A stretch of DNA of 32,000 nucleotides from Candidatus Saccharimonadota bacterium (GTDB lineage Bacteria > Patescibacteriota > Gracilibacteria > BD1-5 > UBA6164): contig OZ245922.1 in NCBI GenBank assembly GCA_965229705.1, positions 300,001 through 332,000 on the forward strand, given 5' to 3'. Made by a program: the position numbers and the translations under genes. The stretch's first letter is position 1; every line of letters begins with the position of its first letter. The notes below the pieces were generated by a model that saw only the letters and a list, made by a program, of their open reading frames with translations, was not told the origin of the DNA and ran no database searches. Shown in pieces: positions 23,653-31,000 of the stretch.

Positions 23653-26586
23653 TTAGAGATTTTCAGACAGAGCTTGAATCTGACTAGGTTCCATCTCACC
23701 GAGTAAAAACTGCTTTACGATTTCAGCGTCACCAAACATTGGGAGTAGTTTATCCAAAAATGATTCATCAACCTCTATAGATAAACCACTAGTAAATGAT
23801 TGCATACTTTGAACTTCATCATTTGTGAGCTGTATATGATATTTATCAAAAAACGAGTGTAGTATTTTATTATAATCGAGATTTTGAATCACTGTTGCCT
23901 CTAGGTCAAAGCTGTCTGCCAAGTCGATATCTCTATCATCTGGTATTGGTTCGCCATCGGATCCTACATGTGCACTGCTAAATGGAGAAAATCCGCGTCC
24001 TCCTCCACTCATTACTTTCTTGAGCATAGCCCACTGTTTTTGCCCAACAGATTTGTTACCCGTTAAATACGTTAATAACAGGTATTGATACTGCTCATTT
24101 GTTGTTAATAACTCTACATAGGTCTTTAGCTCTTGAGTGCTTTTCCCACTTGTTTGGATAAAAAGTTTATGAAAATCGACTTCCTCAAAGAACTTTACTA
24201 GTGATACAAACTCACTATTGCTGGTTGTCCATTTTTGAGTTATCACATATCCTGCGAGTGATTTTGTAAAAACTTGCGGGAAAGTTACAGAGTTTACATC
24301 AGTGTTAAAAGAAGAGTTATTATCTAACATGGTCTTCAGGGCAGAAAGCAGCCTGAGATTTCCTTCTATCACATCTTTTTGAGCAGAGACAAACACTAGT
24401 CCCAACTTATATCCCGTTATTTTTAGGCTTTTGATAGTATACATCTCATCTGTCTTCAGTAGATAAGATACTTTCGTCTCTATATCACCATTCACTGCCA
24501 GTTGTCCAATCGCATAACCTGTGAGTTCAAGGTCATCTTTCAGGAACCTCCAAACAGGTTTCTCTGGTTCATTCTCAATCTCACCTGTCTTTAGTAGATA
24601 AGATACTTTCGTCTCTATATCACCAGTCAATGTGAGTTGTCCAATAGAAGAACCTGTGAGTTCAAGGTCATCTTTTAGGAATTTCCAAACAGGTTTCTCT
24701 GGTTCATTCTCAATCTTACCTGTCTTCAGTAGATAAGATACTTTCGTCTCTATATCACCAGTCAATGTGAGTTGCCCAATAGAAGAACCTGTGAGTTCAA
24801 GGTCATCTTTTAGGAATTTCCAAACAGGTTTCTCTGGTTCATTCTCAATCTTACCTGTCTTCAGTAGATAAGATACTTTCGTCTCTATATCACCAGTCAA
24901 TGTGAGTTGCCCAATAGAAGAACCTGTGAGTTCAAGGTCATCTTTTAGGAACCTCCAAACAGGTTTCTCTGGTTCATTCTCAATCTTACCTGTTTTGAGT
25001 AGGTAAGATATTTTGGTCTCTATATCACCACTTACTGCCAGTTGCCCAATAGAAGAACCTGTGAGTTCAAGGTCATCTTTTAGGAATTTCCAAACAGGTT
25101 TCTCTGGTTCATTCTCAATCTTACCTGTTTTGAGTAGGTAAGATATTTTGGTCTCTATATCACCAGTCAATGTGAGTTGTCCAATCGCATAACCTGTGAG
25201 TTCAAGGTCATCTTTTAGGAACCTCCAAACAGGTTTCTCTGGTTCATTCTCAATCTTACCTGTTTTGAGTAGGTAAGATATTTTGGTCTCTATATCACCA
25301 GTCAATGTGAGTTGTCCAATCGCATAACCTGTGAGTTCAAGGTCATCTTTTAGGAACCTCCAAACAGGTTTCTCTGGTTCATTCTCAATCTTACCTGTTT
25401 TGAGTAGGTAAGATATTTTTGTCTCTATATCACCATTCACTGCCAGTTGTCCAATCGCATAACCTGTGAGTTCAAGGTCATCTTTTAGGAACCTCCAAAC
25501 AGGTTTCTCTGGTTCATTCTCAATCTTACCTGTTTTGAGTAGGTAAGATATTTTGGTCTCTATATCACCAGTCAATGTGAGTTGCCCAATAGAAGAACCT
25601 GTGAGTTCAAGGTCATCTTTTAGGAACCTCCAAACAGGTTTCTCTGGTTCATTCTCAATCTTACCTGTTTTGAGTAGGTAAGATATTTTGGTCTCTATAT
25701 CACCACTTACTGCCAGTTGCCCAATAGAAGAACCTGTGAGTTCAAGGTCATCTTTTAGGAATTTCCAAACAGGTTTCTCTGGTTCATTCTCAATATTACC
25801 TGTTTTGAGTAGGTAAGATATTTTGGTCTCTATATCACCAGTCAATGTGAGTTGTCCAATCGCATAACCTGTGAGTTCAAGGTCATCTTTTAGGAATTTC
25901 CAAACAGGCTTTTCAGGGTTATCTTTGATCTCATCTGTCTTTAGGAGGTAAGATACTTTCGTCTCTATATCACCATTCACTGCCAGTTGTCCAATCGCAT
26001 AACCTGTGAGTTCAAGGTCATCTTTTAAGAATGAAGCATAAGATAAAATAATACTTATCCTCTTCTCTCCGTCAGATTTAATAGCAATTTTTAATAGATG
26101 ATGCAATTTAGGAAATAGCTTCTGATATTCTCCTTCCTCATTAGCCCAAGCCAATATATGAAACCAACTTCCATAAAAAACTGCTTTAATAATATTTTTT
26201 TTAATTGTTTGATCTGTGTGTGTTGCAAGAAAGTCTTTCAAACTTGCTACATCAAACGACTCACATTTCTTTCTAATATCATTTATCAAGTCCAAGTTTT
26301 CAAACGCTGTTAATTCCCAAGCTGTTGTTGTGAGATGACCTCAAGATTGCAACACTTGGAGGAGCTCAACTTGCGTAAGTCTTTTAGCTCGCAAACAGCT
26401 CAAAGCTTGAACCAAAATAAGTTGAGGCAACTCTTCTAGGCTAGCTGACCGTACTCGTTTTTTTAGGCAATTTGCCAAATCTTTCCTCTGTCCAAGAATA
26501 ATATGTAATAATTCCTTTACCTTATCTCACTGCTCAAATTTTTCAGTAGCTGAAGGACTTGCTCATTGTTGTGTAAGCTCATTCAT
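23653..26586 (-). CDS. Modular 45-aa tandem-repeat protein, paralog A (977 aa), unknown function
   Basis: Track ORF 23653-26295 extends upstream through TGA (26341-26343, Ser TCA in paralog B) and two further TGAs to ATG 26584-26586. It has a ~190-aa N-terminal domain, 11.8 repeats of FLKDDLELTGxxIGQLxxxGDIETKxSYLLKTxxxxxxPEKPVW[KR], and a ~300-aa C-terminal domain. No signal peptide or TM helix. Confidence 0.85.
24445..26031 (-). repeat. 135-bp in-frame tandem repeat array, 11.8 units (paralog A)
   Basis: The motif CCAAACAGG recurs at 24550, 24685, 24820 and onward with an exact 135-nt period. The array runs from the FLK codons at 26023-26031 to the ...KTDE codons ending at 24445. Confidence 0.95.
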
Positions 26587-26616
26587 TGAAAGAAGTAAAA
26601 TGTAATTGACACAAGT

Positions 26617-28072: not shown

Positions 28073-28083
28073 TTAGACCCCAA

Positions 28084-31000
28084 CTAATTCATTAACAGAT
28101 TTTTAGACAGAGCTTGAATCTGACTAGGTTCCATCTCACCGAGTAAAAACTGCTTTACGATTTCAGCGTCACCAAACATTGGGAGTAGTTTATCCAAAAA
28201 TGATTCGTCAACTTCTATAGAGAAACCGTTCATAAATGATTGCATACTTTGAACTTCATCATTTGTGAGCTGTATATGATATTTATCAAAAAACGAGTGT
28301 AGTATTTTATTATAATCGAGATTTTGAATCACTGTTGCCTCTAGGTCAAAACTATCTGCAAAGGCCATATCTCTATCATCTGGTATTGGTTCGCCATCGG
28401 ATCCTATATACGCACTTGTAAATGGAGAAAATCCGCGCCCTACTCCACTCATTACTTTCTTGAGCATAGCCCACTGTTTTTGCCCAACAGATTTGTTACC
28501 CGTTAAATACGTTAATAACAGGTATTGATACTGCTCATTTGTTGTTAATAACTCTACATAGGTCTTTAGCTCTTGAGTGCTTTTCCCACTTGTTTGGATA
28601 AAAAGTTTATGAAAATCGACTTCCTCAAAGAACTTTACTAGTGATACAAACTCACTATTGCTGGTTGTCCATTTTTGAGTTATCACATATCCTGCGAGTG
28701 ATTTTGTAAAAACTTGCGGGAAAGTTACAGAGTTTACATCAGTGTTAAAAGAAGAGTTATTATCTAACATGGTCTTCAGGGCAGAAAGCAGCCTGAGATT
28801 TCCTTCTATCACATCTTTTTGAGCAGAGACAAACACTAGTCCCAACTTATATCCCGTTATTTTTAGGCTTTTGATAGTATACATCTCATCTGTCTTCAGT
28901 AGATAAGATACTTTCGTCTCTATATCACCAGTCAATGTGAGTTGCCCAATAGAAGAACCTGTGAGTTCAAGGTCATCTTTCAGGAACCTCCAAACAGGTT
29001 TCTCTGGTTCATTCTCAATCTCACCTGTCTTTAGGAGGTAGGATATTTTTGTCTCTATATCACCATTTACTGCCAGTTGTCCAATCGCATGACCTGTGAG
29101 TTCAAGCTCATCTTTTAGGAATTTCCAAACAGGTTTCTCTGGTTCATTCTCAATCTTACCTGTCTTCAGTAGATAAGATACTTTCGTCTCTATATCACCA
29201 GTCAATGTGAGTTGCCCAATAGAAGAACCTGTGAGTTCAAGGTCATCTTTTAGGAACCTCCAAACAGGTTTCTCTGGTTCATTCTCAATCTTACCTGTTT
29301 TGAGTAGGTAAGATATTTTGGTCTCTATATCACCACTTACTGCCAGTTGCCCAATAGAAGAACCTGTGAGTTCAAGGTCATCTTTTAGGAATTTCCAAAC
29401 AGGTTTCTCTGGACTATCCTTCATCTCACCTGTCTTTAGGAGGTAAGATACTTTCGTCTCTATATCACCAGTCAATGTGAGTTGTCCAATCGCATAACCT
29501 GTGAGTTCAAGGTCATCTTTTAGGAACCTCCAAACAGGTTTCTCTGGTTCATTCTCAATCTTACCTGTTTTGAGTAGGTAAGATATTTTGGTCTCTATAT
29601 CACCATTCACTGCCAGTTGTCCAATAGAAGAACCTGTGAGTTCAAGGTCATCTTTTAGGAACCTCCAAACAGGTTTCTCTGGTTCATTCTCAATCTTACC
29701 TGTTTTGAGTAGGTAAGATATTTTGGTCTCTATATCACCAGTCAATGTGAGTTGCCCAATCGCATGACCTGTGAGTTCAAGCTCATCTTTTAGGAATTTC
29801 CAAACAGGTTTCTCTGGTTCATTCTCAATCTTACCTGTTTTGAGTAGGTAAGATATTTTGGTCTCTATATCACCATTTACTGCCAGTTGCCCAATAGAAG
29901 AACCTGTGAGTTCAAGGTCATCTTTTAGGAATTTCCAAACAGGCTTTTCAGGGTTATCTTTGATCTCATCTGTCTTTAGGAGGTAAGATACTTTCGTCTC
30001 TATATCACCATTCACTGCCAGTTGTCCAATCGCATGACCTGTGAGTTCAAGGTCATCTTTTAGGAATTTCCAAACAGGCTTTTCAGGGTTATCTTTGATC
30101 TCATCTGTCTTTAGGAGGTAAGATACTTTCGTCTCTATATCACCAGTCAATGTGAGTTGCCCAATAGAAGAACCTGTGAGTTCAAGGTCATCTTTTAGGA
30201 ATTTCCAAACAGGCTTTTCAGGGTTATCTTTGATCTCATCTGTCTTTAGGAGGTAGGATATTTTGGTCTCTATATCACCATTTACTGCCAGTTGCCCAAT
30301 AGAAGAACCTGTGAGTTCAAGCTCATCTTTTAGGAATTTCCAAACAGGCTTTTCAGGGTTATCTTTGATCTCATCTGTCTTTAGGAGGTAGGATATTTTT
30401 GTCTCTACATTACCAGTCAGTGCCAGTTTTCCAATCGCATAACCTGTGAGTTCAAGGTCATCTTTTAGGAATTTCCAAACAGGTTTTTCTGGACTATCCT
30501 TCATCTCACCTGTCTTTAGGAGGTAGGATATTTTGGTCTCTATATCACCAGTCAATGTGAGTTGTCCAATCGCATGACCTGTGAGTTCAAGGTCATCTTT
30601 TAGGAATTTCCAAACAGGCTTTTCAGGGTTATCTTTGATCTCATCTGTCTTTAGGAGGTAAGATACTTTCGTCTCTATATCACCAGTCAATGTGAGTTGC
30701 CCAATAGAAGAACCTGTGAGTTCAAGGTCATCTTTTAAGAATGAAGCATAAGATAAAATAATACTTATCCTCTTCTCTCCGTCAGATTTAATAGCAATTT
30801 TTAATAGATGATGCAATTTAGGAAATAGCTTCTGATATTCTCCTTCCTCATTAGCCCAAGCCAATATATGAAACCAACTTCCATAAAAAACTGCTTTAAT
30901 AATATTTTTTTTAATTGTTTGATCTGTGTGTGTTGCAAGAAAGTCTTTCAAACTTGCTACATCAAATGACTCACATTTCTTTCTAATATCATTTATCAAG

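Follow-up and report, generated by a model that had tools for sequence, protein, structure and literature searches.

An orphan, lineage-restricted family of all-helical solenoid repeat proteins with TALE-like evolution in a code-25 bacterium

The 32,000-nucleotide stretch of contig OZ245922.1 analyzed here (the window, numbered from its first letter) carries two minus-strand genes, A and B, whose products each consist of a 185-residue N-terminal domain, a tandem array of 45-residue units and a C-terminal domain of approximately 250 residues (Table 1). They belong to a new orphan, lineage-restricted, all-helical solenoid repeat family whose evolution resembles that of the TAL effectors (TALEs). 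Under the standard bacterial code, the window holds just two long open reading frames (ORFs), both on the minus strand, and the remainder appears non-coding. TGA, however, is the commonest of the three stop triplets, and the ORF content becomes three times as large once TGA is read as sense; the table-11 ORF calls, under which the window had seemed non-coding, were set aside as misleading. In-frame TGA codons encode invariant glycines of MutS (FFRM-G-DFYE, RIVTP-G-T), FtsW (SY-GG-SS) and MetK (A-G-HPDK, GAGDQG). Because TGA occupies these universally conserved glycine positions, the organism is assigned to code 25 (TGA = Gly) and is a Gracilibacteria/Absconditabacteria-type bacterium. The limits of A and B were set with TGA read as glycine.

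Code 25 holds throughout the window (1-32000), with the genes at 21355-22593, 20162-21430 and 16504-17673 as examples. The database protein P0001 is the product of gene A apart from TGA being read as tryptophan, a translation that is wrong at those glycine sites. TGA makes up 38% of the glycine codons (162/431) in the other genes of the window and a normal share of those in the N-terminal domain (3/8), but it is absent from the arrays of A and B (0/47 repeat glycine codons) and from their C-terminal domains (0/15 in that of A, which by itself gives Fisher p = 0.0016). A separate ancestry for this portion of the gene, the level of expression or selection for accuracy are possible reasons for this avoidance.

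The repeat protein belongs to no Pfam, NCBIfam or PADLOC family, and low E-values for S4, DLH, BRICHOS and others were rejected as noise from summing over repeats. Its N-terminal domain likewise has no match in Pfam, NCBIfam, PADLOC or, by profile search, the PDB, while the C-terminal domain matches nothing in any library searched, a profile search of the PDB also coming back empty. The last ~35 residues of the N-terminal domain of A (LFPKLHHLLKIAIKSDGEKRISIILS) resemble a degenerate capping unit. Tandem Repeats Finder delimits 135-bp arrays at 24443-26031 (11.8 copies, 93% matches) and 28883-30742 (13.8 copies, 88% matches), both free of indels, and in the translations cuts at FLKD[DE]LELTG yield 12 units for A (26031..24412) and 14 for B (30741..28852), spaced 45 residues apart without exception. 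A preliminary description of this DNA, made by reading the letters, had given a range that spans the two arrays; the whole genes extend beyond it on either side (Table 1).

That description had also proposed that the units vary at a few discrete positions only. The cut units reproduce every residue state that it listed at residues 11-12, 17-19, 33-38 (five states), 26 (V/I) and 45 (K/R), together with the exact order of the 11-12 and 17-19 states along A and B. Its site list was incomplete, omitting D/E at residue 5 (three units) and the Q15K, D21N and I22V changes of the third unit of B (B3). The two DNA haplotypes that it had quoted in support of linkage to the V/I site both exist, in 5 and 10 units, but codons 24-31 occur in seven haplotypes and the linkage is partial.

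Confinement of the variation to discrete sites is borne out by two measures over the 24 complete units, namely the ratio of nonsynonymous to synonymous polymorphism (pN/pS) and counts of segregating sites. Nonsynonymous and synonymous segregating sites stand at 15:3 in the 11 hot codons against 6:13 in the other 34 (Fisher p = 0.0025). While pN/pS is 1.01 at residues 11-12, 1.46 at 17-19 and 0.71 at 33-38, it drops to 0.03, 0.06 and 0.00 in codons 13-16, 24-32 and 39-44, despite a pS of 0.31-0.40 there. The hot codons were defined from the same data in which they were tested; the positions that vary in the arrays of distant homologues, described below, provide the independent check. The clustering of amino-acid differences between units exceeds the prediction from nucleotide variation, and the scaffold of the units is under strong purifying selection. 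Three regions hold these differences, namely the opening turn of the middle helix (S/Y/H, then S/A), its final turn with the loop behind it (T/A, L/V, T/N/S), and the inserted loop.

Alignment of the units at the DNA level shows that the states are multi-nucleotide cassettes bearing their own synonymous markers, as had been suggested. Those at residues 11-12 read TCT TCT, TAT GCG or CAT GCG, and those at the 17-19 site CTC ACA TTG ACT, CTG GCA GTG AAT or CTG GCA GTA AGT; nearly all combinations of the two sets occur, and the states at the two sites are statistically independent (Fisher p = 1.0). Of 351 pairs of informative sites, 202 violate the four-gamete test, and a minimum of 6 recombination events (Rm) is required within 135 bp, in agreement with the earlier view that recombination has moved blocks from unit to unit and from one paralogue to the other. 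Unique flanks identify the first and last units of A as orthologues of those of B, and the difference within these pairs is precisely an exchange of YA+AVN and SS+TLT, which one short conversion tract of ~27 bp could have produced. Scaffold haplotypes tend to form blocks along the arrays (position 26 in A, runs test p = 0.015), as a history of duplication predicts, whereas the hot-site states are interleaved, a contrast that is suggestive only.

The cassettes can be followed into a second, syntenic strain (L001), which has a single copy of the gene, with 10 units, between dus and holA, and flanks that are ~94.5% identical to those in the window. Its array differs completely in length and order from those of A and B (10 units versus 12 and 14). 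Cassette DNA is nevertheless common to the two strains: TATGCG (YA), TCTTCT (SS), CTGGCAGTGAAT (LAVN) and CTGGCACTGACT (LALT) are present in both, and the block encoding GKIENEPEK, along with other cassettes, is also identical, synonymous markers included. Because the exact cassette DNA is shared despite the re-sorted array, the cassettes predate the strains, and their great age, asserted in the preliminary description, is thereby upheld. The arrays themselves have been re-sorted rapidly between strains. In unit 3 of L001 10001-12661, which has 44 residues, a whole codon is missing within the 17-19 site (LA-NGN), and this deletion shows that the site tolerates a change in length. Unit B3 (30337-30471; YA, K15, ALT, N21, V22) carries the predominant scaffold haplotype of L001, which no other unit of the window has, and is either a relic or an import.

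Concerted evolution keeps the units nearly identical, and the old cassettes travel from unit to unit and from one paralogue to the other by short-tract gene conversion and unequal crossing-over. A diversity-generating retroelement was rejected as the source of the variation, as the differences are shared cassettes and not adenine-specific mutations; no reverse transcriptase was noticed among the larger ORFs of the window, most of which were never compared with a family library.

A and B are recently duplicated copies of one gene that is single in the syntenic strain. Outside the arrays, the two copies of the tandem duplication differ at 9 of 1014 positions in the 5′ part and 20 of 786 in the 3′ part (97.5-99.1% identity). 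The tRNA-dihydrouridine synthase gene dus is the conserved upstream neighbor, as synteny with L001 indicates, and a fragment of its 3′ end was duplicated along with the repeat gene. At the duplication junction lies a 3′-truncated transposase remnant, whose domain covers ~26986-27289 and whose ORF continues into the duplicated dus remnant.

Table 1 Features of the repeat locus in the window (".", no strand)
Feature	Coordinates	Strand	Description
Gene A	23653..26586	-	977 aa; N-terminal domain, 12 units of 45 aa, C-terminal domain; 3 in-frame TGA
C-terminal domain of A	23653..24411	-	252 aa; invariant motif YQYLLLTYLTGN..G.KQW and an acidic, low-confidence segment
Repeat array of A	24412..26031	-	12 units of 135 bp; last unit degenerate from residue 35 on
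N-terminal domain of A	26032..26586	-	185 aa, helical; conserved across the family in alignments
Gene B	28084..31296	-	1070 aa; architecture as A; 14 units; 2 in-frame TGA; ATG at 31296-31294
Repeat array of B	28852..30741	-	14 units of 135 bp; last unit degenerate
Tandem duplication, copy 1	23657..27045	.	Gene A and ~460 bp duplicating the dus 3′ end and the dus-B spacer
Tandem duplication, copy 2	28097..31755	.	Gene B and the 3′ end of the intact dus
Duplicated dus 3′-end fragment	26587-27045		Within junction region 26587-28096
IS200-like Y1 transposase remnant	26986..27337	-	Pfam PF01797, E = 3.7e-26, profile positions 3-104 of 121
Small hydrophobic ORF	27431..28006	+	190 codons; no family match; unique DNA between the copies
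dus (tRNA-dihydrouridine synthase), 3′ part	31390..32000	-	Pfam PF01207, E = 8.6e-33; leaves the window

The family is extremely rare, with about ten members known. A search of 5.8 billion clustered proteins gives 3 matches to the A/B protein, and one of 1.84 billion representatives gives ~9 true members of the family; JGI metagenome contigs, scanned twice, and IMG/VR, scanned once, returned no relatives. All members have the N- and/or C-terminal domain in common, as well as the core L.L[TS]G..[IL]GQ.....G....K...L. P0003 contains 8-9 near-identical units of 33 residues. A homologue with ~12 units (L003 9749-12429, OZ246423.1) sits on a chromosome of 1.33 Mb with the label ‘MAG: Candidatus Altimarinota bacterium’, where a frameshift inside the array splits it into P0005 and P0004, the mark of either a pseudogene or a sequencing error in the repeat. 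P0009 (L004 1226-2236, Global Ocean Sampling contig GOS2248_10044951) has at least 4 near-identical units, and it comes from the same project as the marine proteins MOrTL1 and MOrTL2. P0006 and P0008 have divergent units of the 45-residue type.

Aligning the two types shows that the 45-residue unit is the 33-residue core with ~12 residues inserted at the kink of the second helix. The core comprises a short helix, a loop of 3-5 residues ending in an invariant glycine, and a long kinked helix. With the core numbered from L1-T2-G3, positions 4-5 (residues 11-12 of A and B), 11-12 (residues 18-19) and 23-27 (the 33-38 region) vary in every one of the five arrays compared, which belong to proteins down to ~30-50% identity. 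The last residue of the unit also varies in the 33-residue arrays and, by the same comparison, is invariant in A and B. Position 4 is divided approximately 1:1 between serine and aromatic residues in all five arrays (S4Y4, S5Y4, S2F2, S13Y7H4 and S5Y4), and no other observation speaks as strongly for maintenance of the states as against drift.

The AlphaFold2 model of P0003 reaches a pLDDT of 70-83 over approximately seven repeats. Each modeled unit consists of a 7-residue helix (GxxIGQL), the loop CVNGD and a kinked helix of 10+7 residues, a predicted topology that is the same as that of the TALE repeat. All 50 matches listed by Foldseek for this model against the PDB are TAL effectors, BurrH or TALE fusions, albeit weak ones (E = 5.7e-4 to 6e-2, TM-score 0.21-0.42, rmsd 9-21 Å). 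In the model of A, each unit has instead three helices (VWKFLKDD, GSSIGQLAV and IETKISYL), and a low-confidence loop of 13 residues, 33-38 among them, comes after the third. Plotted on a helical wheel, residues 11, 15, 19, 12 and 18 of the middle helix fall within 120 degrees, opposite the invariant I13 and L16, and the hot spots, together with the occasionally variable Q15, probably form one exposed stripe.

Among the closest known repeat families, the TAL effectors and TALE-likes (Xanthomonas TALEs, Ralstonia RipTALs, Mycetohabitans Bat/BurrH, MOrTL1/2 and STAR) resemble the present one in how the arrays evolve. They too consist of near-identical helical tandem units in concerted evolution, with few variable residues that include two before an invariant loop glycine, and their arrays are re-sorted by recombination. 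Units of 33 residues (in part of the present family), degenerate capping units and non-repeat terminal domains are further points in common, and the 33-35-residue, two-helix TALE-like unit fits P0003, L003 and P0009. The two residues before the glycine vary as LT/VN/VS in A and B, and as VN/VT, LT/LA/LV/LN/FA/RY and LN/SY/LV in the relatives. In contrast to TALEs, there is a second site, equally or more variable, eight residues upstream, where helix a makes its first turn, and the insertion has a third; the window units have 45 residues, three helices and a long inserted loop; and the GG/K/Q phosphate-binding motif is missing, the residue alphabet is another one and the arrays are acidic. The setting differs as well, the host being a code-25 candidate-phyla bacterium and the gene standing among housekeeping genes. 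The literature searched contains no link between TALE-likes and Gracilibacteria.

The proposed TALE-like signature is x6-V-x6-G-x14-L (V7, G14, L29; de Lange et al. 2015, PMC4787788). The 33-residue units match its spacing when shifted by one residue, with I/L and V/L in place of V and L, whereas the 45-residue units keep I-x6-G and have the third position displaced by the insertion. Compared with MOrTLs by published descriptions only, P0009 lacks GG at 14-15 and has D rather than A/S at 15. Both phmmer and hhalign choose the same register against BurrH, in which residues 17-19 are at or adjoin the loop of the repeat-variable diresidue (RVD) and residues 11-12 are at positions 4-5. If the TALE analogy holds, this register and the predicted helix boundaries would make the 17-19 site, and not 11-12, the RVD-like loop site, and residues 11-12, in the first turn of the preceding helix, would be more like PPR position 5. 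Neither relation is significant by hhalign, however (probability 0.17% for BurrH and 0.04% for TALE), and the phmmer E-value for BurrH (5e-5) is inflated by periodicity.

The same inflation affects the other sequence matches. We do not claim homology to ankyrin (1e-7), BurrH (5e-5) or designed PPR (dPPR; 1e-10) after hhalign and a control in which columns were shuffled in 300 trials, the observed score being reached in 2/300 (dPPR), 10/300 (ankyrin) and 31/300 (BurrH). Because periodic helical sequences easily reach such scores, we assign the family to none of ankyrin, TALE or PPR. A Pfam scan of B, P0003, P0005, P0006, P0008, P0009 and P0011 gave no PPR, Ank, TPR, Arm or mTERF match, the PPR models PF01535, PF13041, PF12854 and PF13812 being absent even at E ≤ 10.

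PPR and dPPR proteins (PDB 5I9D etc.) are helical-hairpin solenoids likewise, and dPPR is the best PDB match of the 33-residue unit profile (2/300 shuffles, for one target), with I..LC..G.L..[AK]L.. aligned to LIDGLCKAGKLDEALKLF. The variable pair in the first turn of helix a and the variable last residue of the 33-residue arrays recall PPR code positions 5 and 35, and in the dPPR alignment the first hot site falls at PPR positions 4-5 or 6-7, depending on gap placement. Unlike PPRs, the units have 33 or 45 residues rather than 35, match no Pfam PPR model, find no PPR among the 50 Foldseek matches listed, and have an invariant last residue in A and B. Given the many repeat families in the PDB, 2/300 is not decisive. 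Ankyrins and DARPins also repeat every 33 residues, resemble the family weakly in phmmer and vary close to a turn with a glycine; here, by contrast, the TPLH motif is missing, a predicted helix replaces the loop/hairpin, no Pfam match is found, and the shuffle p is ~0.03. No ankyrin protein is among the 50 Foldseek matches listed for the P0003 model.

Three helices per unit of ~40-45 residues are also found in ARM/HEAT proteins and in the prokaryotic mTERF-like tandem repeats (pTERF), the latter DNA-binding proteins of near-identical three-helix tandem units from uncultured bacteria, whose specificity depends on unit arrangement (Hu et al. 2024, PMC11417379). Variation here falls on the middle helix, unlike in ARM proteins, which bind through the third; for the A model, Foldseek gives ARM entries only at E > 3, and no Pfam Arm match was obtained. 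For mTERF there is no PF02536 match and no entry in the PDB sequence searches or among the Foldseek matches listed. Motifs of divergent members, such as GLSHSQIAKLL in P0008, recall mTERF motifs, a likeness unconfirmed by any tool.

Natural families that read a polymer with one unit per repeat are few, namely TALE, PPR and PUF, with zinc fingers and pTERF doing so in part, and they are useful both biologically and as tools. The present family has the evolutionary signature of such a reader: near-identical units, few exposed variable sites, a small recurrent alphabet that distant relatives retain, and cassette re-sorting, a pattern that by analogy is that of programmable binders such as TAL effectors. 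We favor, with a probability of roughly 0.4, a reading of modular recognition in which the exposed hot residues read an extended ligand unit by unit. The middle-helix face (residues 11, 12, 15, 18 and 19), repeated 12-14 times along the solenoid, would form a ligand-binding stripe, with each unit supplying one specificity element for an extended polymer. By analogy with TALE, PPR and PUF arrays, that polymer would most likely be a nucleic acid, and cassette shuffling would re-program the recognition of the array. The preliminary description had proposed a specificity loop; in support, the sites lie on one helix face by the helical wheel and 33-38 in a long loop, while a recognition code is plausible at most and pN/pS is ~1. 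A bolder version, which we regard as doubtful, is that this is an unrecognized programmable polymer-reading family restricted to Gracilibacteria-type bacteria, in which a 33- or 45-residue unit would read one DNA or RNA nucleotide through a small S/Y/H-S/A ... Q/K ... L/V-T/N/S patch on one helix face by a code distinct from those of TALE, PPR and PUF, and the cell would change specificity by transferring ready-made cassettes from unit to unit and from one gene copy to another.

Several observations weigh against modular recognition. Hot-site pN/pS is near 1 and not clearly above it, which fits relaxed constraint as well as diversifying selection, and the units are not independent samples. T/N/S at residue 19, before the glycine, and D/N/S at residue 21, after it, are typical helix C-cap and N-cap residues, and these changes may be partly structurally neutral. 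With net charges of -28 and -33, the arrays of A and B are strongly acidic, and the family shows no conservation of net charge (+5 in P0003, -6 in P0002); this is unfavorable for binding nucleic acids. By hhalign, no significant relation to BurrH, TALE or ankyrin units was obtained, and the A model, with its 45-residue units, has no significant structural neighbor in Foldseek, the best match being to generic ARM/HEAT/TPR solenoids at E = 0.6. Overall model confidence is low (mean pLDDT 46 and 57, the latter for A), the alignments having 3 and 9 sequences, and the shared face is derived from a helical wheel combined with AlphaFold secondary structure. Lastly, the window contains no candidate target: the 12- and 14-nucleotide symbol patterns of the A and B hot-site strings, run with all base assignments, in both orientations and with ≤1 mismatch, gave nothing but A/T-rich, low-complexity matches.

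The main rival is that the variable positions are permissive capping and loop positions. The proteins would then be structural or scaffolding solenoids that work equally well whichever state each unit bears, their hot sites tolerant helix ends and loops, and concerted evolution with patchy gene conversion would have produced a mosaic free of any code. Neutrality predicts the pN/pS of ~0.7-1.5 observed at the hot sites, every one of which lies at a helix terminus or in a loop of the models; T/N/S and D/N/S are interchangeable as capping residues, and the 11-12 and 17-19 states are independent. Yet homogenization with drift should lose or randomize the Ser/aromatic split, which is kept at ~1:1 in five arrays of proteins that diverge to 30-50% identity, and the small, recurrent alphabet of the hot sites and the survival of cassettes beyond strain divergence also speak against it, leaving this explanation short of probable. 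An ankyrin- or ARM-like surface that binds proteins or peptides, for example in a host or prey cell, the bacterium being presumably episymbiotic, would vary rapidly through shuffling and copy-number change, in the manner of an arms race or antigenic-type variation. Such a role would suit the three-helix, 45-residue unit with its generic ARM/HEAT-type neighbors for the A model, the phmmer similarity to ankyrin/DARPin proteins, the acidic arrays, and the fast array turnover between strains with its fresh duplication. It is nonetheless unlikely, as the ankyrin score is matched by 10/300 column-shuffled controls, Pfam gives no Ank or Arm match, the AlphaFold repeats are not ankyrin-like, no signal peptide or membrane anchor is visible on inspection of the N-terminal sequence, and the gene sits among housekeeping genes (dus, holA, mutS, ftsW).

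True homology to TALEs, through an ancestor shared with TALEs, RipTALs, Bats and MOrTLs, would imply binding of double-stranded DNA at one base per unit, with the two residues before the invariant glycine as the RVD. That only TALE and BurrH entries are among the 50 Foldseek matches listed for P0003, that phmmer and hhalign agree on one ungapped BurrH register, and that the hydrophobic-x6-Gly-x14-[L/V] spacing equals the V7-G14-L29 motif (PMC4787788) all fit such descent, as do the one-residue loop deletion in L001, which is like that of N* repeats, and the near-identical units evolving in concert. This origin is improbable, however, with an hhalign probability below 1%, a BurrH score matched by 31/300 shuffles and the TALE consensus unmatched. 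The loop has no GG following it, K16/Q17 are missing, and the residues that would carry specificity (N, T, S, A, V, Y) differ from the TALE code set; the window units have 45 residues, the A model has no TALE match, and the arrays are acidic. To our knowledge, moreover, a type III secretion system is not expected in the Gracilibacteria-type group. It is very improbable that repeat assembly produced the unit order and number or the duplication, even though the units are 88-93% identical over 1.6-1.9 kb and the sequence is known from one assembly only. Both arrays keep a perfect reading frame without an indel; the two copies differ at 29 positions in their unique flanks and have different junctions, one with an insertion sequence remnant; relatives show the same kind of array on contigs whose names suggest long-read assemblies; and the cassette pattern is independent of unit order.

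The lineage that carries the family combines a recoded genome with a way of life that is poorly understood and probably depends on a host. If binding by these arrays is modular, they would provide a new scaffold and a new code, and with them an entry point to self-regulation in these bacteria or to their manipulation of a partner. If it is not, the locus would still be a clean natural example of short-tract conversion maintaining ancient cassettes in a tandem array.

Two minor observations concern the surroundings of the locus. The MutS homologue (window 21355-22593; L001 13721-14923) has just ~400-413 residues, and that of L001 has Pfam MutS domains I-III only; holA follows it directly in both strains, and the ATPase domain V is at neither strain's locus. 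A 24-bp tandem repeat (2-2.5 copies, unit AATGGAAATACAGGAAAAGATAGT) lies at 5842-5903, within the ORF at 5419-5925.

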